This document shows positions 4,529-62,557 of a stretch of DNA of 64,000 nucleotides, piece by piece. Below the pieces are notes generated by a model. That model ran no database searches. It was not told the origin of the DNA and saw only the letters and a program-made list of their open reading frames with translations. The stretch is from Enterobacteria phage vB_EcoM_IME540. The translations under genes were made by a program, and so were the position numbers. Where the stretch lies: sequence record MT150133.1. One strand, 5' to 3'. Position 1 is the stretch's first letter. Each line of letters begins with the position of its first letter.

Positions 4529-4967
4529 AATCTACCACCACTAAATTAATATCAGGAGTAAACAAATTAATCAATTGGTAAACCTTGTCCCAATCACCAC
4601 CAGCAATACCACAACCGATGCGAGGAATATAAATTCTTGGTTTAAACAAAAGACCTTTTGCTTGTTGATTTAATTCTATCATACAGTTTACTAAAGCACC
4701 GTAATCAAGATTAGGGCCTGGTTCGTATTGGGTGTATAAATTATAGCAAATTTGGCCCTTATTACCTGTGGCTTGAGTAAACGTGCCAAGTTTTTCCAAA
4801 TGGCCTAAATAAGTGGTTTTATCGATAGCGAGAATAGGCGGATAAGCCTTAGCCAATTGCCCAGCTACACCTGAACCCATTGTGTGGAAACAGTTACACC
4901 CGTGTGCAACATTATTACCTTGAAGAAATAGGGCGACAATATCGCCCTTAATATAATCAATAATCAT
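4500..4967 (-). CDS. macro-domain-like protein (putative ADP-ribose binding/hydrolase)
   Basis: 155 aa; motifs GDIVALF...N...GSGVAGQ and C-terminal IPRIGCGIAGGDW resemble macro-domain glycine-rich loops; assignment from motif recognition only. Confidence 0.45.
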   Translation of the reverse strand: MIIDYIKGDIVALFLQGNNVAHGCNCFHTMGSGVAGQLAKAYPPILAIDKTTYLGHLEKLGTFTQATGNKGQICYNLYTQYEPGPNLDYGALVNCMIELNQQAKGLLFKPRIYIPRIGCGIAGGDWDKVYQLINLFTPDINLVVVDYESPLPASV

Positions 4968-5320
4968 TTAGAGTTTAATCCTCGATTGTATGAATCAACG
5001 AGTCTGTCTACCATAGACGCGCACATTTCTTTGTACTTTTTATCAGATGGAATACATTCAGTAACGTTTAGACGTTGCTCGTATCTTTTAGAAAGAGTTT
5101 TCTCTTTCATTCGACGATGCTCTACGTCGTTCTGCCCATCTTTAAAAGCAGCCGTGATTTTTGAACTGAATTCGATAATGCATTCAGTATTACTCGGATG
5201 ACAATAATCTTTTGCTGTACGGGTAGCATACTCGACAATTGAATTATTACTATCATAAACTTGTGACGCTAATACTCCCGGAGCAATCAACATAAGCGCT
5301 ATAGTCATCTGCTTAATCAT
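4964..5320 (-). CDS. putative secreted/periplasmic Cys-containing protein (118 aa)
   Basis: N-terminal signal-peptide-like MIKQMTIALMLIAPGVLASQ; four Cys in mature part. Confidence 0.45.
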   Translation of the reverse strand: MIKQMTIALMLIAPGVLASQVYDSNNSIVEYATRTAKDYCHPSNTECIIEFSSKITAAFKDGQNDVEHRRMKEKTLSKRYEQRLNVTECIPSDKKYKEMCASMVDRLVDSYNRGLNSK

Positions 5321-5884
5321 TTAATATACCGCCTCAAACATCTTTTTAGATTTTAGATAATTGGCCTTTTCTAGAACTTCAGAAGCATATTTACTGCCTG
5401 CTTCGACGTTCCAGCCCGCATTATAAGAAGCAATCGCTTTTCTCAGGTCACCTTTGTGAACATCAATCCAATAAGACAGTTCAATGTAGGCCCAAGAGGC
5501 ACTGTTCTGTCGTTTTTGGACCATACGAATTATTTCTTTGTCTGACATCTTCCAACCTACCTGTTGAACACGACTTCTTAACGTAGGCAAGTAATTTTGG
5601 AACATGCCATAAGCATGGTGCTTATCTTTATTTAAACCCTGATTAATTCCGGCAGATGATTCCTGCCATAGTAATCCGGCCATAATATATCCTAATCCTT
5701 TTTGATTAGGGGTTTCTTTGAACTTTCCCGACTTTTGGTATTGTTCACCGAAAGCATACGCATAATGTAAATTATCGAGCTGGGTTTCTGTAAATACGGG
5801 TTCTGCTGCACTTACAGAAAACGAACCACACATAATAGCCGCTATTAAAGAATATTTAAGTTTTTTTAGAAAAATCATAATCAA
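5321..5884 (-). CDS. putative secreted lytic transglycosylase (SLT-domain-like)
   Basis: Signal-peptide-like N-terminus; motifs LLWQESS ... AYGMFQ ... ASYNAGW match the E-S / GLMQ / AYNxG pattern of SLT domains. Confidence 0.5.
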   Translation of the reverse strand: MIMIFLKKLKYSLIAAIMCGSFSVSAAEPVFTETQLDNLHYAYAFGEQYQKSGKFKETPNQKGLGYIMAGLLWQESSAGINQGLNKDKHHAYGMFQNYLPTLRSRVQQVGWKMSDKEIIRMVQKRQNSASWAYIELSYWIDVHKGDLRKAIASYNAGWNVEAGSKYASEVLEKANYLKSKKMFEAVY

Positions 5885-7327: not shown

Positions 7328-7605
7328 CAGTATTTTTCCTCGGGTTGGAAAACGGAACGACACGCCCACATACTTGCTTCTTTCAGACGGTCAATTGCAT
7401 TACGAATCTGGGTGATGCGTTCATGAGCCTGGTCTAGTTCTTGTTCAGAAACCTCTTCGGTATCTAAGTTCATATAATGAGTAACATGTTCTTCTTCCAG
7501 AGCTTTAAACATTAACCCAAGACGAACTTCAGCATCTTTGATAGCGTTTACTTTACCGATTTTATCGTCGGTATGCGGCTTATAACCCTTGATATCTTCA
7601 ATCAT
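7327..7605 (-). CDS. hypothetical small protein (92 aa)
   Basis: ORF track; position in regB-denV interval. Confidence 0.45.
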   Translation of the reverse strand: MIEDIKGYKPHTDDKIGKVNAIKDAEVRLGLMFKALEEEHVTHYMNLDTEEVSEQELDQAHERITQIRNAIDRLKEASMWACRSVFQPEEKY

Positions 7606-7820
7606 TTCACTTCCTCGCCAGTTGCGATATCATATTCTACCAAACGAAGGCCTTCAGTCCAACCTTGCACGGAGATATAGGTAGTCGGGTAAATCATTTC
7701 TTTACCATTCCACCGACCGCCATCCCAGACTTCCAGAAAGTCTTGTTCACCTGGTCCATTAAGCCATTCAACAAATCTTTTCAGAGCTTCTTCAGAACCT
7801 TCAATTGTCAATTTAGACAT
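7602..7820 (-). CDS. hypothetical small protein (72 aa)
   Basis: ORF track; 4-nt overlap with neighbour. Confidence 0.45.
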   Translation of the reverse strand: MSKLTIEGSEEALKRFVEWLNGPGEQDFLEVWDGGRWNGKEMIYPTTYISVQGWTEGLRLVEYDIATGEEVK

Positions 7821-8109
7821 ATTTTTTCCAATCAGAAATCATATGAATCTCTTGGTCATAAGTCAAGAGACTACGAGCAATAATACCCTTACAAGGCCCT
7901 GAGATGAACTCGAGAGTGAAGTAAGGAACCTGTTTCATTAATCGGATACTAGGAGCATGACATCTAAAACGAGAGCCCTTAAAGGGCCCTGTCATGAATA
8001 CATATTCCAATGGGTAGAAATAAGCATATTCGAAATTTGCAGTAAGGTCCTCTCTTCGAACCTTACGTGAGAAATAACAGAACTCAAAAAGTTCTTCATC
8101 AGTCATCAT
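7813..8109 (-). CDS. hypothetical protein (start at internal ATG overlapping upstream stop)
   Basis: ORF track 7813-8157; ATG ATG at 8109/8106 coupled to stop of 8106-8633. Confidence 0.4.
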   Translation of the reverse strand: MMTDEELFEFCYFSRKVRREDLTANFEYAYFYPLEYVFMTGPFKGSRFRCHAPSIRLMKQVPYFTLEFISGPCKGIIARSLLTYDQEIHMISDWKKYV

Positions 8110-8633
8110 TGCATTCCTATCACAAAGAACAGAGGCAAAGGCTTGTCGCCTTGGCACATAAATTTATTAATCATTACCTGGTAAGCTTCATAGAACTTAT
8201 CCATCGCTGGAAGGCGCATTGGCTCTTCGATAATAATCAATAATCGAGTAACAGATAGTCCACGATACTTATGGAAATTGTCTTCATCAAGGAAACTGCG
8301 CACAGTATCATAGACAACAAAACCAGGACCTTCGACTTGGAGATGTGGGTGTGCCTTAGAAACCTGTTTTATTACATTACAAATTTCTCGCGAGCGATGC
8401 GAAGAACTCGACATAACAATCACATCATTACCCTTGGAAACCCAATCAGCGGCGAACTGAGCAAGGGCACTTGTTTTACCTGTTTGGCGTCCGCCATCAA
8501 GTCGAAGAGTACCAAACTCTTGCATTCTTGAAGCAGGTTCATACCATGTGTATTGGTCTGAGTCTAAACGTTCAATGGCGCGTTCAGCGAAGGCGTGCAT
8601 TAAGGTTAGATAAATGGGAGTTAAAAATTTCAT
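8106..8633 (-). CDS. P-loop NTPase-like protein
   Basis: 175 aa; Walker A GGRQTGKTS and Walker-B-like LLIIIEEP. Confidence 0.5.
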   Translation of the reverse strand: MKFLTPIYLTLMHAFAERAIERLDSDQYTWYEPASRMQEFGTLRLDGGRQTGKTSALAQFAADWVSKGNDVIVMSSSSHRSREICNVIKQVSKAHPHLQVEGPGFVVYDTVRSFLDEDNFHKYRGLSVTRLLIIIEEPMRLPAMDKFYEAYQVMINKFMCQGDKPLPLFFVIGMQ

Positions 8634-53096: not shown

Positions 53097-53524
53097 TGTT
53101 CCTTATCCCTGATGATTACGAATTAACTCTAGAAAGCGTAGAGGCCAAAATTCCAGAAGCACAGGGACGTTTTGCTGCTCTTTCTGAAGCGCTCGAGAAA
53201 AGCGATATAAATAATCTTGTAGAGAACATGATTGCTGAAGGCGATATCGAATGTGCTATCGCTCTTGGTTCTTTAAATGAATCAATGGCTCTTAACGAAT
53301 TTATAGTTAAACACGTTTCCTCTAAAGGTGAGCTTACTCGTACTAAAGATATTAAAACCCGTCAACGTAATGCGTTCCAAACGACAGGTTTATCTAAAGC
53401 AAAACGCCGTCAGATTGCTCGTAAAGCATCTAAAACCAAACGTGCTAATCCGTCTACTCAAGTACGTGCCGAACGTAAGCGTAAGAAAGCCCGTTCTAAA
53501 CGTAAAGCTTTTGGACTCAACTAA
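53096..53524 (+). CDS. 68: prohead core protein gp68
   Basis: 142 aa; basic C-terminus; synteny. Confidence 0.85.
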
Positions 53525-54159
53525 TGAAACCTGAATTGCTCATCGAACATTGGGGACAACCAGGTGAAATTATCGATGGGGTTCCTATGTTGGAATCTCA
53601 TGATGGAAAAAATTCTGGGCTTGCTCCCGGCCTTTATATAGAAGGCATTTTCATGCAAGCAGAGGTAGTTAACCGTAATAAACGCCTTTACCCAAAACCT
53701 ATTTTGGAAAAAGCCGTTGCCGATTATATGGCAGAACAGGTTGCTACTAAACAAGCTTTAGGAGAATTAAACCACCCACCTCGTGCTAACGTTGACCCTA
53801 TGCAAGCTGCTATCATTATTGAAGATATGTGGTGGAAAGGTAATGATGTTTATGGACGTGCACGTATCATCGAAGGTGACCATGGCCCTGGTGATAAACT
53901 AGCTGCAAATATCCGAGCTGGCTGGGTTCCTGGTGTTAGTTCTCGCGGTCTTGGTTCTTTAACTGAAACCAATAAAGGATATAAGCGTGTAAACGAAGGT
54001 TATAAATTAACCGTCGGTGTTGATGCAGTATGGGGACCATCTGCTCCTGATGCTTATGTAACTCCGAAGCAAATTACAGAATCACAAACGGTAGAAACCG
54101 ATACCAGTGCCGATGACGCCTTTATGGCTCTCGCAGAGGCCATGAAAAAAGCGTTATAA
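53524..54159 (+). CDS. 21: prohead core protease gp21
   Basis: 211 aa; synteny. Confidence 0.88.
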   Translation: MKPELLIEHWGQPGEIIDGVPMLESHDGKNSGLAPGLYIEGIFMQAEVVNRNKRLYPKPILEKAVADYMAEQVATKQALGELNHPPRANVDPMQAAIIIEDMWWKGNDVYGRARIIEGDHGPGDKLAANIRAGWVPGVSSRGLGSLTETNKGYKRVNEGYKLTVGVDAVWGPSAPDAYVTPKQITESQTVETDTSADDAFMALAEAMKKAL

Positions 54160-55026: not shown

Positions 55027-56586
55027 ATGAAAAAGAATGCATTAGTTCAAAAATGGTCCGCTCTGCTGGAAAACGAAGCCCTTCCTGAAATCGTGGGTGC
55101 TTCTAAACAAGCTATCATTGCTAAAATTTTCGAAAACCAGGAACAAGATATTCTGACCGCTCCTGAATACCGTGACGAAAAAATCTCCGAAGCATTTGGT
55201 TCTTTCCTGACCGAAGCTGAAATTGGCGGTGACCACGGTTATGATGCTACCAATATCGCAGCTGGCCAGACTTCTGGTGCTGTAACTCAGATTGGGCCGG
55301 CAGTAATGGGTATGGTTCGTCGTGCTATTCCTCATCTGATTGCTTTTGATATTTGTGGTGTTCAGCCTCTGAATAACCCTACCGGCCAGGTATTTGCCCT
55401 TCGTGCAGTTTATGGTAAAGACCCTATCGCTGCTGGCGCTAAAGAAGCTTTCCATCCGATGTATTCTCCGGACGCTATGTTCTCTGGTCAGGGCGCTGCT
55501 GAAACTTTCGAAGCACTGGCTGCAAGCAAAGTTCTGGAAGTTGGTAAAATTTATTCTCACTTCTTCGAAGCTACCGGTGCTGCACACTTCCAGGCTGTTG
55601 AAGCCGTAACCGTTGATGCTGCTGCTACTGATGCCGCTAAACTGGATGCTGCTATTACCGCTTTGATTGAAGCTGGTAAGTTGGCTGAATTGGCTGAAGG
55701 TATGGCTACTTCTATCGCTGAACTTCAGGAAGGCTTTAACGGTTCCCAGGACAACCCGTGGAACGAAATGGGCTTCCGCATCGACAAACAAGTTATCGAA
55801 GCTAAATCCCGTCAGCTGAAAGCAAGCTATTCTATCGAACTGGCACAGGACCTTCGTGCAGTACACGGTATGGATGCAGATGCTGAACTGTCCGGTATCC
55901 TTGCTACCGAAATTATGCTCGAAATCAACCGTGAAGTTATCGATTGGATTAACTACTCTGCACAGGTTGGTAAATCTGGTATGACCAACACCGTTGGCGC
56001 TAAAGCTGGTGTGTTTGACTTCCAGGACCCGATTGATATCCGTGGTGCTCGTTGGGCCGGTGAGAGCTTTAAAGCCCTTCTGTTCCAGATTGATAAAGAA
56101 GCAGCCGAAATCGCTCGTCAGACCGGTCGTGGTGCTGGTAACTTCATCATCGCTTCCCGTAACGTAGTTAACGTACTGGCTGCAGTTGATACTTCTGTAA
56201 GTTATGCAGCTCAAGGTCTGGGTCAAGGTTTCAACGTTGACACAACCAAAGCAGTATTTGCCGGTGTTCTTGGTGGTAAATATCGCGTTTACATCGACCA
56301 GTATGCACGTTCCGATTACTTCACCATCGGTTATAAAGGCGCTAACGAAATGGACGCAGGTATCTACTATGCTCCGTACGTTGCACTGACCCCGCTGCGT
56401 GGTTCCGATCCGAAGAACTTCCAACCGGTAATGGGCTTCAAAACTCGTTACGGTATCGGTATCAACCCGTTCGCTGACCCGTCTGCACAGGCTCCTACCA
56501 AACGTATTCAGAGCGGTATGCCTGACATCGTTAACAGCCTTGGTCTGAATGGTTACTTCCGTCGCGTATATGTTAAAGGTATCTAA
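55027..56586 (+). CDS. 23: major capsid protein gp23
   Basis: 519 aa; synteny; late promoter within 3' end of gene 22. Confidence 0.95.
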   Translation: MKKNALVQKWSALLENEALPEIVGASKQAIIAKIFENQEQDILTAPEYRDEKISEAFGSFLTEAEIGGDHGYDATNIAAGQTSGAVTQIGPAVMGMVRRAIPHLIAFDICGVQPLNNPTGQVFALRAVYGKDPIAAGAKEAFHPMYSPDAMFSGQGAAETFEALAASKVLEVGKIYSHFFEATGAAHFQAVEAVTVDAAATDAAKLDAAITALIEAGKLAELAEGMATSIAELQEGFNGSQDNPWNEMGFRIDKQVIEAKSRQLKASYSIELAQDLRAVHGMDADAELSGILATEIMLEINREVIDWINYSAQVGKSGMTNTVGAKAGVFDFQDPIDIRGARWAGESFKALLFQIDKEAAEIARQTGRGAGNFIIASRNVVNVLAAVDTSVSYAAQGLGQGFNVDTTKAVFAGVLGGKYRVYIDQYARSDYFTIGYKGANEMDAGIYYAPYVALTPLRGSDPKNFQPVMGFKTRYGIGINPFADPSAQAPTKRIQSGMPDIVNSLGLNGYFRRVYVKGI

Positions 56587-56602
56587 GATATAACCTTATT
56601 AT

Positions 56603-56630
56603 GGGAGACTTCGGTCTCCCATTCTTGTTT
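56603..56630. terminator. bidirectional terminator hairpin between gene 23 (+) and small ORF (-)
   Basis: GGGAGAC-TTCG-GTCTCCC then ATTCTTGTTT; same 18-nt hairpin also at 16568-16585. Confidence 0.55.
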
Positions 56631-56635
56631 CTGTA

Positions 56636-56902
56636 TTATGCAATCTTAACTCGGCGGTTGATGATATCACGGAAGTCAATACGATTTTCTTGGATTTTCA
56701 GCCAGTTACCAGATTTGTCTTTGGTATGGGTAGAGTATTCACCGTTCCACCAGAAGTCGGTAGCATAAGCCATGGCTTCGTATTTCTTAACTAAGGCATT
56801 CACTGCATTACCATTAGGATTGTTACCGAATTTTTCTACCAGAGCTTTGATGTCTTTATCAAGAGCGGAAAGAGTAGTACGAATAAAGTTTAACTTGTTC
56901 AT
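56636..56902 (-). CDS. small hypothetical early protein antisense to capsid module
   Basis: Start at ATG 56900-56902 preceded by GAGGAG; early-promoter cassette (core 56921-56961) immediately upstream. Confidence 0.5.
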   Translation of the reverse strand: MNKLNFIRTTLSALDKDIKALVEKFGNNPNGNAVNALVKKYEAMAYATDFWWNGEYSTHTKDKSGNWLKIQENRIDFRDIINRRVKIA

Positions 56903-56920
56903 TTTTAATCTCCTCATGTT

Positions 56921-56967: not shown

Positions 56968-56975
56968 TATAAATA
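56968..56975 (+). promoter_or_regulatory. late promoter (TATAAATA) for gene 24
   Basis: Exact TATAAATA 28 nt upstream of ATG. Confidence 0.6.
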
Positions 56976-57003
56976 AACATATACCCTCAATAAGGAAAGC
57001 GCA

Positions 57004-58287
57004 ATGGCAAAGATTAACGAATTACTGCGCGAGTCAACAACTACTTCCAGCAACTCATTGGGTCGCCCTAATCTTGTTGCTTTGACCCGTGCTACAACCA
57101 AATTGATTTACCGTGATATTATCGCCGAACAACGTACTAGCCAGCCTATTGCTGCACTGTATGGTGTCAAATATCTTACCCCTGATAATGAATTTAGTTT
57201 CCAGACAGGTGCCTCTTATGGTGGTGAAGTTGGTTCTAAAGACCGTGAAACTATCCCAGAACTCACAGATAAGGCCCAGGCGATTGCTCAGGGTGAATAT
57301 TTCAAGTACCAGAATGTGGTTTATAAGGCTCTTAAAGCAAGCCCACTCGCGTCCACTAGCGCCACAGAATTGGCTGATGCTCTTCAAGAAGGTTTAGTGT
57401 CATTAACATGTCGTCTGGTTCCTGATGCTGCCCATACCACTAAATTTGAAGCGAGTGATGTAGAAATCTCTGATGCTGTATTCCAGGTTAATAAATGGAA
57501 TGCTCCGGTTAAGACCCGTAAATTGAAGACGGCTTTGACTGTAGAATTAGCGCAGGATATGGAATCAAATGGCTTTGACGCGCCGGCGTTCTTAGAAGAC
57601 CTCTTGGCTACAGTAATGGCAGATGAAATTAATAAAGACGTTCTGCAATCTCTAATAACCGTATCCAAACGTTATAAAGTTACTGGTGTATCTGATAACG
57701 GCATCATCGATTTGTCTTATGACAGTGCTCCTGAATCTGCACGTAAACTTTATGAACTCGTTTGTGAGATGAATTCTGAAATCCAGAAAACTACTTCTTA
57801 TTCTGGCACGTTTGTTGTGGCTTCAAGTCGTGTGGCTGCAATGCTTGCAGGTTCTGGCTGGTTAAAACATAAACCCGAAGATAATAATTGGCTTCCGGAA
57901 ACTGCATACGGATATTTGTTGAATGGTCTGCCTCTGTTTTGTGACGTTAACAGTCCATTAGATTATGTTACCGTTGGTGTTAAAGAGAATTACGGCGGTA
58001 ATGAAGTTGTCGGTTCTATTTTCTACGCTCCCTATACCGAAGGCTTAGATTTAGATGACCAAGAACACGTCGGTGCTTATAAGGTTATTGTTGACCCGGA
58101 TTCATTACAACCTTCTATTTCTCTGATGGTTCGTTATGCACTATCAGCTAACCCGTACACCGTGGCTAAAGACGATAAAGAAGCTCGTGTTATCGATGCA
58201 ACCAATATGGATTTAATGGCTGGACAGAGCAATATGTCTTATCTGGTTGGCGTTAAACTTCCGGCAATTATTTACGAGGCTGATTAA
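57004..58287 (+). CDS. 24: capsid vertex protein gp24
   Basis: 427 aa (same length as T4 gp24); TATAAATA at 56968-56975. Confidence 0.88.
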   Translation: MAKINELLRESTTTSSNSLGRPNLVALTRATTKLIYRDIIAEQRTSQPIAALYGVKYLTPDNEFSFQTGASYGGEVGSKDRETIPELTDKAQAIAQGEYFKYQNVVYKALKASPLASTSATELADALQEGLVSLTCRLVPDAAHTTKFEASDVEISDAVFQVNKWNAPVKTRKLKTALTVELAQDMESNGFDAPAFLEDLLATVMADEINKDVLQSLITVSKRYKVTGVSDNGIIDLSYDSAPESARKLYELVCEMNSEIQKTTSYSGTFVVASSRVAAMLAGSGWLKHKPEDNNWLPETAYGYLLNGLPLFCDVNSPLDYVTVGVKENYGGNEVVGSIFYAPYTEGLDLDDQEHVGAYKVIVDPDSLQPSISLMVRYALSANPYTVAKDDKEARVIDATNMDLMAGQSNMSYLVGVKLPAIIYEAD

Positions 58288-59567
58288 TGTCTAAGATTGT
58301 AGACCTAATTAAAGAATCCACATTGACGGCTGCCAGCTCGGTTGGCCGTCCTGCTCTTCTTTCATACACCCAAGCAACTAATAAACGAATCTTTAAAGCC
58401 CTAGTTGCTGAACAAAAAACAAATCAACCGGTTGCTGCTCTGTATGGGGTACGTGTACTGAATCCTGACGACAAAATGACTTATCTTGGTGGAGCAACAT
58501 TTGCGGGCCAGATTGGTATGACGGAACGTGAAAATATTCCAGAATTTACTGATTCATCTACAGCTTATGCGGTCGGTGATATGTTCCAGTTTGAAAGCGT
58601 AGTGTTTAAAGTTCTAGAAGCATCTCCTTTCGCCGGAACCACAGAAACCAACCTCAGCGAAGTTATTTCTGAAGCAGTGGCAGCCGGCCATATCCGTATG
58701 GCGTCGGATGCTGCTATTACTTCTAAATTTGAACAAGGCCATCCTGAAATTGCTGAAACCGGATTCCGTATCGACAAATGGCAATCTGAAGTTAAATCGC
58801 GTAAACTGAAAACTTCATTGACAGTCGAATTAGCCCAAGACCTAGAATCTAACGGGTTTAATGCTCCTAATTTCGTTGAAAATCTGCTAGGCATTCAAAT
58901 GGCAGAAGAAATTAATAAGGATGTATTACAGTCATTAATTACCGTGAGCTCTCGTTTTAAAGTCCAGGGTGTTTCTGAAAAGGGTGTATTAGACCTTACC
59001 AACCCTCGCTACGATAATGCCCAGGACCGTGCTCGCACATTATATTATTATATGTGTGAGATGAACTCTGCCGTCCAACGACAGACTTCTTTTGCCGGGA
59101 CTTATGCAGTAGCTAGTTCTCGTTGTGCTGCTATTCTCGCCGCCTCTGGTTGGGTTGAGAAAAAGGAAGACCAGGACGAATTGGCTTATGGTATATTAAA
59201 GAATGGCCTACCACTTTATGCTGATATGAATAGTCCATGTGATTATGTTATTGTTGGTGTAAATGCCCAGATGGGTGAAGGACAGACGGTCGCATCTTTA
59301 TATTATGCGCCTTATACGGAAGGTTTGAATGTGGTTGACGAAGAAGGTGATACTTCAGTTGGTGAATTTAAGGTTATTGTTGACCCGGAAAGCTTACAAC
59401 CTACAGTAGCATTGCTTGCTCGTTATGCATTGACTGCAAACCCTTATACCGTCGCTAAGGACGATAAAGAAGCCCGCATTATTGATGGTTCTGATATGGA
59501 CAAAATGGCTAATCAAAGTCAATTGAGTTCTTATCTCGGCGTAAAATTACCGCCTTTAGAAAAATAA
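58287..59567 (+). CDS. capsid vertex protein gp24 paralog (second copy)
   Basis: 426 aa, alignable along full length with the upstream gp24 copy, roughly half identical by eye; ATGA-coupled. Confidence 0.8.
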   Translation: MSKIVDLIKESTLTAASSVGRPALLSYTQATNKRIFKALVAEQKTNQPVAALYGVRVLNPDDKMTYLGGATFAGQIGMTERENIPEFTDSSTAYAVGDMFQFESVVFKVLEASPFAGTTETNLSEVISEAVAAGHIRMASDAAITSKFEQGHPEIAETGFRIDKWQSEVKSRKLKTSLTVELAQDLESNGFNAPNFVENLLGIQMAEEINKDVLQSLITVSSRFKVQGVSEKGVLDLTNPRYDNAQDRARTLYYYMCEMNSAVQRQTSFAGTYAVASSRCAAILAASGWVEKKEDQDELAYGILKNGLPLYADMNSPCDYVIVGVNAQMGEGQTVASLYYAPYTEGLNVVDEEGDTSVGEFKVIVDPESLQPTVALLARYALTANPYTVAKDDKEARIIDGSDMDKMANQSQLSSYLGVKLPPLEK

Positions 59568-59590
59568 AAGGGACCTTGCGGCCCTTTATC
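59567..59590. terminator. bidirectional terminator between gp24 paralog (+) and rnlB (-)
   Basis: A-run, GGGACC-TTGC-GGCCC hairpin, T-run. Confidence 0.55.
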
Positions 59591-59592
59591 AT

Positions 59593-60600
59593 TTATTTGG
59601 ATACTAGTTCAATCCATACGGCTCGTAGGGTATCTTTTACACACTCAACGAGCTGCTTTTTAACTTCAACAGGATTTTCTGCATCAGTTAATTCTAATTC
59701 TTCACGGGCAGCTTCTTCTAAGATATCTTGGACTGCCAAGCCCATTACCTTTCCAAAATCCTTCGGCGATACTTCGCCAATCTTACTGATAACGTTGTTA
59801 ATACGGTTAACAGTCACATAATCAGTGAATTGCCACATCAAATCCATATCGTCTTGGGACAAAACTACAGCCGCCTTAATAGGCTTATCAGACTTTTTCT
59901 TCTCGCTGAATTTAGAGTTCTTACATTTAATCGCCACGCGATTTCCATTAGGAAGCCAGATAGGAATATCGGGTTTAAGTACAAAGCCTTCAGCCGTGAA
60001 TACTTTACCTTCTACCTTAGGAATAAAGTCTGTAGAGTTTGCAATAGTTAGGCCTGCGTTATCAACCGCAAAATTATAATCAGGAATAACTGAATCAAAG
60101 TCATTAGGTAATTTAATAAGGTCTTCAAAGCTACCAGTAGCCAGACATGGCGCGACCTTAAACTTATGGATAATACAGAAGGCTTCCATCAATGTATCGG
60201 TTAGAACAGATTCTGAACCATCTTCTTTAGTAACTCGGATATCGAACACATAAAAGTCTTTATCGCCGTAGTCCACATTCTTCTGGATGCCTGTCCCAGC
60301 GAATTCGCCATAAATCTGGTATGACTGATAATTAATCGATTCAATTAGATGTTGAACTGATTTAATAGAATCAGCGTAGTTCTTAAGTACAATTTCATAA
60401 CCATAGAAATCTTCAGCAGGGAGGATAGGGCCAGTGCGCTTGGCGCATGTGACTGCGTCACGTTCTATGATTAAACTAAAGTTGGTTCCATGAATCTTCT
60501 CACGTGCTACCCATTCACCACCAGTCAAACCGTTAGTACGGAGTTTTTCGATAAACTTACTGTTGTAGTGGTTTTCGAGACTGCTATATTTCTTGAACAT
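59593..60600 (-). CDS. rnlB: RNA ligase 2
   Basis: 335 aa; [20 protein letters not shown]...[16 protein letters not shown]... near-identical N-terminus to T4 Rnl2 incl. ligase motif I KxHGxN. Confidence 0.93.
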
Positions 60601-61027: not shown

Positions 61028-61876
61028 TTAATAAATGTAATCGTATATAATACCAGCTTCTAAAGCGGTGCGATGAATAATTCGACCATTACGAGATTCT
61101 TGTACATCAACCTCTGAATAGTCGGTAATCATTTTTTGAAGTGTATATCGGTGCAAATAATACGGGCTATCCGGGTCATCTGTTTTCCAGTCTTTGCCTT
61201 CAAGAGTCATTTTCTGGATTTCATCCATAACCCACCAACCAACCCAAATATATGCTGAATTACGAACAGGGAGTGGATGAACGTAAGGTAATTCGCCATC
61301 CGGAACCGGTGCGACTTTAGCCGTGACTGTTACATTACCGGTTTTTGTGACAGTCGCCGGGTTATAATCAGTCGCCGAAACCACAACAGAAACTTCAATA
61401 ACCTGCGAACCTTCAGTGCTTGTATCGATTGCTAGAGTATCCGTGGTGCCAACTACAGGAGAACCGTCTTTCTTCCAAGAATAGGCAAAAGTAGCACCAG
61501 CAGGAGCGCCGACCACATCCGCTTTAAAAGAAGCTGGAGTGCCTTCCGGAACATTAATCGAAGCTGGGGTTAATGTCACAGAAACACCGGAAATGGTTTT
61601 ATTCTGGATAGTTAAAGTTGTTTCAGCTTCAGCTGTTTCTGGTTCGCCGTCCGCCGGTGTAGTTGTTGCAACAACTTTAATAGTCTTGCTGCCTGCCGGG
61701 CCAACAGCAACATAATCCATTGCAGCAGTCACAGAAGATTGAGGAACGCCATCAACGGTCCAGACAAATGATTCGGTACCTTCAGCTGCAGCACCGGAAC
61801 CGGTCGCAGTGAAATTGGTTGTTGCTCCAATAACGGCCGTAGCCGCCAAAGGAGCCATATCTACGGTATAAGCCAT
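61028..61876 (-). CDS. hoc: highly immunogenic outer capsid protein Hoc (shortened)
   Basis: C-terminal ~100 aa (TVTKTGNVTVTAKVAPVPDGELPYVHPLP...WVMDEIQKMT...) match T4 Hoc; Ig-like N-terminal repeats; 282 aa vs ~376 aa in T4. Confidence 0.88.
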   Translation of the reverse strand: MAYTVDMAPLAATAVIGATTNFTATGSGAAAEGTESFVWTVDGVPQSSVTAAMDYVAVGPAGSKTIKVVATTTPADGEPETAEAETTLTIQNKTISGVSVTLTPASINVPEGTPASFKADVVGAPAGATFAYSWKKDGSPVVGTTDTLAIDTSTEGSQVIEVSVVVSATDYNPATVTKTGNVTVTAKVAPVPDGELPYVHPLPVRNSAYIWVGWWVMDEIQKMTLEGKDWKTDDPDSPYYLHRYTLQKMITDYSEVDVQESRNGRIIHRTALEAGIIYDYIY

Positions 61877-61885
61877 AATAAACCC

Positions 61886-62557
61886 TTATTTTAAAGTGAC
61901 AAAAGATGAGTTACGAGTTTCACGTACTAATACTGAACCATTACGATTAATGTAATAAATCAGACTAAATAATGTTTGGTGGGCAGAAGGATGTTGGAAA
62001 GCAGTTGGACGTTCTTTCCAATCCGGAGTCTCAGAAATCCATTGGTAAATCCACCAAGGAACGGTGCAATAACCTGGGTTCTTACCGATAAGCAAAAGAT
62101 TAGGACTGAAGTTTTCAGGTAAAGAGAATACAGGTTTTTCAGATTCAACAACCTTGGCTATAGCCCCTTTGAATTTCTCTTCGTCAAATGGAACATCCTC
62201 TTCGATAATCTCTACCTTAGGAAGTTCGGCTACCTCAACGACTTCTACTGCAGCCTCAGGGGCATCGAACAACAGGGTGGCTTCTTCTTTAGCTGGTTCA
62301 GCACCATCAACAAATTCGTTAGCACCTGTAAGTTCGTCGGCAGCATCAATCAAATCAGAAATGGACAACCCTTCGGTTTCTGGAAGTGGTTCGTCAGCCA
62401 AGGCTTTAAAGCCTTCAGAGATATCGATAATCAAATTATCAAACGAACGGGTTTTCTTAAGTTTTAAACCGAACTGTTCGCCGTATTCGATTAACTTAGC
62501 TTTAGCTTCTTTTTTATCTTCGAGTGCACGAAGCTCTTCAATATATTGAGTATCCAT
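61886..62557 (-). CDS. inh: prohead protease inhibitor Inh-like
   Basis: 223 aa; position between hoc and uvsW as in T4. Confidence 0.7.
   Translation of the reverse strand: MDTQYIEELRALEDKKEAKAKLIEYGEQFGLKLKKTRSFDNLIIDISEGFKALADEPLPETEGLSISDLIDAADELTGANEFVDGAEPAKEEATLLFDAPEAAVEVVEVAELPKVEIIEEDVPFDEEKFKGAIAKVVESEKPVFSLPENFSPNLLLIGKNPGYCTVPWWIYQWISETPDWKERPTAFQHPSAHQTLFSLIYYINRNGSVLVRETRNSSFVTLK

Follow-up and report, generated by a model that had tools for sequence, protein, structure and literature searches.

The DNA analysed here is a 64,000-nucleotide (nt) stretch of Enterobacteria phage vB_EcoM_IME540 (sequence record MT150133.1), a coliphage of the JS98 type (Dhakavirus); we refer to this stretch as the window. 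It carries two genes for a T4-type capsid vertex protein, 24a and 24b, in the order 20-67-68-21-22-23-(orf)-24a-24b-rnlB.

Two capsid vertex protein genes in tandem

Genes 24a and 24b are head-to-tail open reading frames (ORFs) on the plus strand that together span positions 57004-59567, and neither contains an internal stop codon. Gene 24a (57004-58287, plus strand) encodes a T4-type capsid vertex protein of 427 amino acids (aa), the orthologue of the T4 gene 24 product (gp24). Gene 24b (58287-59567, plus strand) encodes a divergent second vertex-protein paralog of 426 aa. A preliminary description of the sequence had noted two full-length gp24-like ORFs of these lengths, alignable throughout and roughly half identical. 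Both are indeed present and intact. By BLASTP the two proteins are 55% identical with 77% positives (E = 3e-176), and the alignment runs collinearly over 424-428 residues. Three short indels separate 24b from 24a, at 24b residues 239-241 and 352-354 and, in the form of a 4-residue deletion, near 295. The same description had joined the ORFs through an ATGA overlap, which is wrong for this phage. The junction is TAATG (58285-58289, plus strand), where the stop codon of 24a (58285-58287) and the start codon of 24b (58287-58289) share 1 nt rather than 4 nt. A 4-nt ATGA overlap is found at the 24a/24b junction of the Marfavirus P545; CF-SP2 has a 1-nt overlap as in the window, and in JS98 the two genes abut where those of the window overlap.

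The vertex-gene pair is already known, being annotated in ~117 related genomes and mentioned in print. Nor is it specific to phage IME540, since it is also carried by Dhaka-, Gapriver-, Gelderland-, Marfa- and Roskildeviruses and by some Kanagawaviruses. The 3.1-kb region is ~99.4% identical to that of the Dhakavirus coliphages vB_EcoM_FB, Bp7, WG01 and QL01 and 86% identical to that of JS98, and relative to the JS98 orthologues the 24a and 24b proteins of the window are 95% and 91% identical. GenBank records label the genes 24a/24b in JS98, JS10 and IME08, 'capsid vertex protein I/II' in VR5, VR20 and VR26, and 'Head vertex protein I/II' in CGG4-1. The tandem duplication was noted for the Salmonella phages S16 and Melville in the Melville genome announcement, the sole explicit mention of it in our full-text literature searches, which found no study of the second vertex protein's role. 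The pairs of JS98/JS10/IME08, VR5/VR20/VR26 and S16/Melville consist of the same two genes in the same order with the same flanks; the window is another member of this set and differs in nothing essential. What is new here is the ratio of nonsynonymous to synonymous substitution rates (dN/dS) on both copies, the retained protease site, the putative shared promoter and terminator, and the observation that 24b was never found without 24a.

Family membership and the maturation site

The Pfam Gp23 family model PF07068 spans the full length of both proteins (E = 3e-98 for 24a and 2e-96 for 24b), with scores far above the gathering score, and both match PHROG 138, while no NCBIfam model matches either. 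The 24a protein aligns to T4 gp24 with one gap and 70% identity. The 24b protein is 56% identical to T4 gp24 over its full length and matches PDB entry 1YUE with E = 2e-150 over residues 1-423. All PDB entries for the vertex protein are of T4 gp24 (1YUE, 5VF3, 7VS5 and 8GMO), which has the same length, a protease site of the same (L/I)-x-E|S form after residue 10 and a gene in the corresponding position after gene 23 in the late head operon. In the PDB, 24b is nearer to gp24 (E = 1e-147 to 1e-150) than to gp23 (~1e-11). The window's gene 23 for the major capsid protein (55027-56586, plus strand; PF07068, E = 3e-122; gp23 in the JS98 annotation) encodes a more distant paralog of both vertex proteins, with 27% identity to 24a over ~300 aa. 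For 24b, an HK97-like fold with an insertion domain is implied by the 56% identity to a solved structure.

The prohead protease takes 10 residues off T4 gp24 (T4 head review), and the mature T4 gp24* in PDB 5VF3 and 8GMO aligns from query residue 11. In 24a the predicted prohead-protease site, cut after E10, is L8-R9-E10-S11 (codons at 57025-57036, plus strand), identical to residues 8-11 of T4 gp24. In 24b the corresponding residues are I8-K9-E10-S11 (58308-58319, plus strand), a predicted protease motif of the form (L/I)-x-E-S with the cut between E and S. This motif is kept at residues 8-11 in every 24b examined, from Dhakavirus to Roskildevirus and in the metagenome contigs. The window also encodes a prohead protease, a gp21 homologue (53524-54159, plus strand; Pfam PF03420 Peptidase_S77, E = 6e-103), which is expected to be the enzyme that trims both vertex proteins. 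Because such a cleavage site serves only inside proheads, its retention is the best pointer, if an indirect one, to 24b as a prohead component.

Predicted transcription and translation of the pair

A late-promoter motif of the T4 type, TATAAATA, lies at 56968-56975 on the plus strand, 29 nt 5' of the 24a start. It is the only copy between gene 23 and rnlB, with none within 24a or before 24b. Shine-Dalgarno-like sequences were read ahead of both genes, AAGGA for 24a (56992-56996, plus strand) and GAGG for 24b (58276-58279, plus strand), the latter inside the 3' end of 24a and 7 nt before the ATG. The TAATG junction suggests that translation of the two genes is coupled. On the upstream side, gene 23 and the putative vertex-gene operon are set apart by a terminator-like hairpin 3' of gene 23 (56601-56622, plus strand); its 9-bp stem has five G-C pairs and leads into a T-rich tail. 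On the downstream side, a G+C-rich hairpin, GGGACC-TTGC-GGCCC (59570-59584), lies where 24b and rnlB converge, bordered by runs of A and of T and with a T-rich tail on the plus strand. Our scan detected this hairpin on the minus strand and the plus-strand sequence was read directly; it is probably a bidirectional terminator. Given the sole late motif before 24a, the flanking hairpins, the GAGG and the overlapping stop and start codons, 24a and 24b are expected to lie on a single late transcript and to be translated in coupled fashion.

Exact copies of TATAAATA number 20 in the window, compared to 7.6 expected by chance, and 13 of the 20 are on the plus strand between 42 and 57 kb, ahead of head and neck genes. 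This distribution is consistent with an ordinary T4-type late region.

Both copies are intact and under purifying selection

We estimated dN/dS by the Nei-Gojobori method from orthologue pairs with an estimable and not clearly saturated synonymous distance (dS). Between the window and JS98, dN/dS is 0.061 for 24a and 0.056 for 24b, and across the usable orthologue pairs it ranges from ~0.04 to 0.07 for 24a and from 0.02 to 0.08 for 24b. Thus, both genes are under strong purifying selection. Identity between the two proteins of one genome is 53-58% in all 13 genomes compared, and none of these contains a decayed copy or a tract of recent conversion. This flat identity rejects recent gene conversion between 24a and 24b, and the dN/dS values together with the intact copies in the 13 genomes reject pseudogenisation. 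The earlier view that the pair is old and both copies intact therefore holds. The absence of 24b from several lineages could be read as the trace of a redundant duplicate drifting to loss, or 24b could be an annotation or assembly artefact; the selection analysis effectively refutes this, and we rate it as extremely improbable. With dN/dS at ~0.06, 24b is intact in 13/13 genomes, ~117 records contain two full-length matches, and 24b is carried by independent isolates sequenced since 2007 as well as by metagenome assemblies.

The two genes are alike in composition, with G+C contents of 0.424 (24a) and 0.423 (24b) and a correlation of relative synonymous codon usage (RSCU) of r = 0.87, and there is no sign of a foreign origin by this measure. 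At long range, 24b has not evolved faster than 24a: in a neighbour-joining tree, the branch lengths from the window to FBB1 add up to ~0.36 for 24b and 0.50 for 24a. These data bear on a role for 24b as an assembly factor that is absent from the finished virion, which we consider improbable. Such a protein might be present transiently at the vertices, might trigger or time protease activation, or might act with the scaffold, and would then be lost or degraded. The idea draws on T4, where attachment of gp24 to the prohead vertices is thought to trigger gp21 activation (T4 head review), and on the codon usage of 24b, which is nearer to that of genes 20 and 21 (r = 0.84) than to that of gene 23 (r = 0.62). 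However, one would not expect a transient factor to conserve all the structural features of a shell subunit, and 24b has kept the whole gp24 length, with 77 invariant columns across 43 aligned gp24 homologues, as well as the C-terminal motif ANPYTVAKDxKEAR, besides evolving as slowly as 24a.

Distribution of one- and two-copy phages

The number of phage records in which tblastn found gp24 homologues varied with the E-value limit from ~1,090 to 1,420, and ~117 or 118 of them have two full-length gp24 places. Among the matches listed, each two-copy isolate has exactly two matching places. The two-copy phages include Dhakavirus and Gaprivervirus (Escherichia), Gelderlandvirus (Salmonella phages S16, STML-198, STP4-a, Melville and CF-SP2), Marfavirus (Klebsiella phage P545), Roskildevirus and relatives (Erwinia phages Cronus, IT22 and FBB1), the Kanagawavirus members Enterobacter phage IME523 and Kosakonia phage 305, one Yersinia phage and one Proteus phage. 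All loci inspected have gene 23, 24a, 24b and the rnlB region in that order, in some cases with a small ORF after gene 23. One copy is found in T4, Karamvirus (EnC07 and PG7), PEi20, PEi26, PM2, Serratia phage 4S and EcS1, and also in Jiaodavirus Roth68, Krischvirus, Pseudotevenvirus, Slopekvirus and Tulanevirus. Both states thus occur among related genomes, and T4 has, as previously stated, a single gene 24, positioned between segD and rnlB.

24a-type genes often stand alone, in the one-copy phages, whereas 24b lies directly 3' of a 24a gene in every isolate locus opened and in 5/5 metagenome contigs, which had been picked because 24b showed no visible partner. A 24b gene on its own was seen neither in the isolate loci opened nor in these five contigs.

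In the IME523 locus, an ORF of ~487 aa at the hoc position (7370-8272, minus strand, cut at the locus end) is labelled 'capsid vertex protein gp24'; this third label is probably a mislabel, because tblastn with gp24 queries finds only two places in the IME523 record. The record of Klebsiella phage KPV15 lists two 'capsid vertex' features (NC_055715.1, 115654-116921) where its only vertex gene is matched in two parts; this may reflect a frameshift or sequencing error rather than a second gene.

Phylogenetic history of the pair

Neighbour-joining trees were calculated from gamma-corrected distances with 200 bootstraps for sets of 54 and 64 sequences, and were rooted on the gp24 of Slopek- and Pseudotevenviruses. 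All 24b sequences form one clade (100% bootstrap) on a long stem of ~0.20. All 24a sequences form a clade with the single genes of T4, CC31, Karamvirus, Moonvirus (Merlin), PM2, PEi20, 4S and EcS1, supported at 99-100% and excluding 24b. The 24a and 24b trees agree on a deep division that splits the Roskildevirus/FBB1 group from the rest. 24b fell inside the 24a/T4 clade in 0/200 bootstraps and was its exact sister in 15/200, which rejects a recent in-place duplication of the resident gene. Because the 24a/T4 clade excludes 24b, 24b is not a copy of its present neighbour and the event predates the radiation of the T4-containing clade. Judging from these trees, the event that formed the pair is older than the T4/JS98 split. 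Of the tandem duplication put forward in the preliminary description, the old, tandem and intact paralogs stand, but the tree does not allow 24b to have been copied from the resident 24a.

The nodes that define the sister group of 24b have neighbour-joining bootstraps of 6-28%, and the phylogenetic signal of 24b is mosaic. Over T4 residues 1-357, 24b was sister within the Jiaodavirus/Tegunavirus set in 99/200 replicates, within the Acinetobacter-phage set in 42/200 and to the 24a/T4 clade in none. Over residues 358-427, it joined the 24a/T4 clade or a subset of it in 121/200. 24b shares with the basal lineages the segment SEA(V/I)AA..(I/V)RM, SRFKV..KGVLDL, RCAA and the lack of a 'KP' insertion near residue 292, and the derived C-terminal motif given above is common to 24b, 24a and T4. 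Two origins fit these observations. In one, a duplication on the T4 clade's stem was followed by marked change in 24a; in the other, a gp24 gene was captured from a more distant T4-like phage and its 3' end was recombined with the resident gene.

In the 24a tree, the single-copy phages (EcS1; 4S, PEi20 and PM2; Karamvirus, T4 and Moonvirus) branch among two-copy lineages, and the 24b and 24a crowns are similarly deep. On both grounds we think it somewhat likelier that 24b was lost several times, including once toward T4, than that it was gained repeatedly. Kanagawavirus is polymorphic, with one copy in PEi20 and PEi26 and two in IME523 and Kosakonia phage 305. The 24a genes of IME523 and Kosakonia phage 305 are placed in the Dhaka/Gelderland clade (100%), apart from PEi20, which suggests that the 24a-24b cassette has been exchanged between genera as a unit. 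VR26 24b groups with JS98 24b (95-96%), but VR26 24a is placed outside the 24a group of the Dhakaviruses, and the dS separating the window from JS98 is 1.23 in 24b compared to 0.65 in 24a. These differences suggest that recombination within Dhaka- and Gaprivervirus had a breakpoint close to the 24a/24b junction.

Substitutions specific to 24b cluster in the N-arm

To locate what sets 24b apart, we considered as eligible the 196 positions at which the 24a/T4 clade has the same residue as the basal lineages. In 13 cases another residue is fixed in 24b, and seven of these positions lie among the 32 eligible sites in residues 26-68 (the N-arm), versus six among the 164 elsewhere (Fisher p = 0.0014). 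The N-arm signature is LLSYTxATNKRIFK in 24b, including that of the window, versus LVALTRATTKLIY in the others. When the T4 head expands, the N-arms of gp23* and gp24* shift to its outer surface and bind adjacent subunits (T4 head review). Compared to T4 with its one gene 24, the window phage thus has two, and 24b adds 13 lineage-fixed substitutions, seven of them in the N-arm, and its three short indels relative to 24a. A second divergent region corresponds to T4 residues ~97-153, which, going by the structure of T4 gp24, we assign to the insertion domain and presume to be exposed on the surface. Here, 24a and 24b are only ~40% identical, and within-group identity is 0.52 for 24a and 0.66 for 24b, making 24a the faster-evolving copy.

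The two proteins could also be interchangeable alternatives, either of which would fill all 11 vertices. The second copy would then be an insurance, or a variant with regard to a host factor or defence or to acid, protease or temperature stability, and virions would carry a variable mixture. We think this rather unlikely. Coupled expression from a single promoter would offer no choice of copy, and a 24b able to do the whole job would be expected to occur alone at times, which it did not in the loci and contigs examined. The changes fixed in 24b cluster in the contact-forming N-arm, and the presumed exposed domain is the more conserved in 24b. We also know of no defence system that senses gp24. 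What speaks for interchangeability is that one vertex protein is enough for T4-type phages, that the presumed insertion domain has diverged to ~40% identity between the copies, and that the cassette has moved between genera (IME523 and Kosakonia phage 305 versus PEi20). In addition, gp24 has been reported to influence how well T4 heads withstand low pH and digestive enzymes (PMC10580926).

Genes and variable sites flanking the pair

Between gene 23 and 24a, the minus strand carries a 93-aa ORF (56636-56917) with a match to PHROG 6003, a family of unknown function (E = 8e-50). The ORF is conserved in the same place in JS98, VR5, VR26, IME08 and IME341. The interval between genes 23 and 24 holds the homing endonuclease gene segD in T4, IME08 and IME341, and the window has no segD. 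A homing endonuclease between 24a and 24b was ruled out; segD of IME08 and IME341 sits between gene 23 and the small ORF.

The right-hand boundary is formed by rnlB (RNA ligase 2; 59593-60600, minus strand; PF09414 and PF18043), which is in the same place in T4, JS98, S16-type phages and others. Relatives differ in the content of the slot that separates rnlB from the last vertex gene, which is empty in the window (59567-59593) and in T4. The slot contains a 'tail fiber-like protein' in IME08, a 'tail fiber protein' and a 'putative structural protein' in Cronus, ORFs of 346 aa and 165 aa in metagenome contigs, and other ORFs in Roth68 and IME523 (variable-slot extracts L013 4359-5546, L023 4827-6342, L007 3826-4629, L021 (IME523) 4847-5356 and L014 4890-6427). 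The end of the vertex-gene late operon seems to be a favoured insertion site, and insertion at this point may be the route by which 24b first arrived.

Further to the right are two minus-strand neighbours, at 61028-61876 and 61886-62557. The ORF in the hoc position, as judged from the JS98 annotation, has 282 aa, compared to 376 aa for T4 Hoc. The 223-aa ORF beside it occupies the inh position, as judged by synteny with T4, P545 and EnC07. Neither has a Pfam match at E <= 0.001.

Discussion

Taken together, the data incline us slightly toward the view that 24a and 24b are an ancient and stably kept penton pair, co-made late in infection, assembled in proheads, trimmed and arranged in separate homopentamers, with 24b as an accessory penton. 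Both genes would be transcribed from the one late promoter at 56968, with transcription ending at the hairpin at 59570-59584. We infer that both proteins belong to the virion and reside at the capsid vertices. They would be incorporated into the prohead, and the first 10 residues of each would be cut off after Glu10 by the gp21-type protease of the window. Each protein would form its own pentamers, and the 11 non-portal vertices of the prolate head would be split between two kinds of penton. 24a would be the general T4-type penton, sufficient alone in T4, and 24b an add-on penton with its own N-arm, the part that would lock neighbouring subunits after expansion. Separate homopentamers at different vertices are favoured because a five-membered ring cannot hold a regular two-protein pattern. 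The preliminary description had proposed that two vertex proteins imply heterogeneous or specialised vertices; this is plausible and fits the shared operon, the kept protease site and the diverged N-arm. As to history, the pair would have arisen before the T4/JS98/S16/Cronus radiation, and its later course would include losses in several lineages, T4 among them, and occasional moves from one genus to another by recombination.

Several points weigh against this account of two kinds of penton. The RSCU of 24b correlates less well with that of gene 23 (r = 0.62) than does the RSCU of 24a (r = 0.81), which is why 24b may be made in smaller amounts than 24a. T4, Karamvirus, PEi20, PM2 and EcS1 build their heads with one vertex gene, so 24b is dispensable for a T4-type head. 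The choice of homopentamers over mixed pentamers is purely inferential. An AlphaFold2 monomer model of 24b from a 43-sequence alignment was too poor to use (mean predicted local distance difference test score 51, predicted template modelling score 0.48), and our full-text literature searches found no virion proteomics, knockout or other genetics, structure or cryo-electron microscopy of any two-copy phage.

A more specific form of the penton-pair account can be put forward tentatively, although we regard it as somewhat unlikely. A prolate T4-type head would present three non-equivalent classes of vertex, namely one apex and two rings of five. Pentamers of 24b might occupy just one symmetry class, either the apex opposite the portal or one five-membered ring, with the N-arm adapted to that position. 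The capsids of JS98-, S16- and Cronus-type phages would then have a three-protein shell, which would be the ancestral condition, and T4 would be a simplified form that has lost 24b.

The putative penton pair has two parallels. In bacterial microcompartment (BMC) shells, several paralogous vertex-capping proteins (BMC-P) are encoded in one operon and serve one polyhedral shell, but these differ from the vertex pair in having an unrelated fold and assembly pathway and no proteolytic maturation. Within the T4-type phages, the older duplication that led from gene 23 to gene 24, along with the bypass-24 mutants of gene 23, would represent an earlier round of the same process, in which a shell paralog is specialised for a subset of capsomers (reviews). 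The products of that duplication, gp23 and gp24, are ~20-27% identical and have proven hexamer and pentamer positions, whereas 24a and 24b are 55% identical and their distinct positions are putative.

T4 is the reference for large prolate capsids, and its rule is one hexamer protein and one pentamer protein. Yet ~117 sequenced phages of Escherichia, Salmonella, Klebsiella, Erwinia, Enterobacter, Kosakonia, Yersinia and Proteus have kept a second, putative penton gene under strong selection since before the phage genera diverged. Particle stability matters in therapy and biocontrol, for which S16 and relatives of JS98 and Bp7 are used or proposed. If the two pentons do occupy different vertices, the pair would offer a way to learn how a prolate shell tells its non-equivalent corners apart, and T4 itself would be a reduced form.

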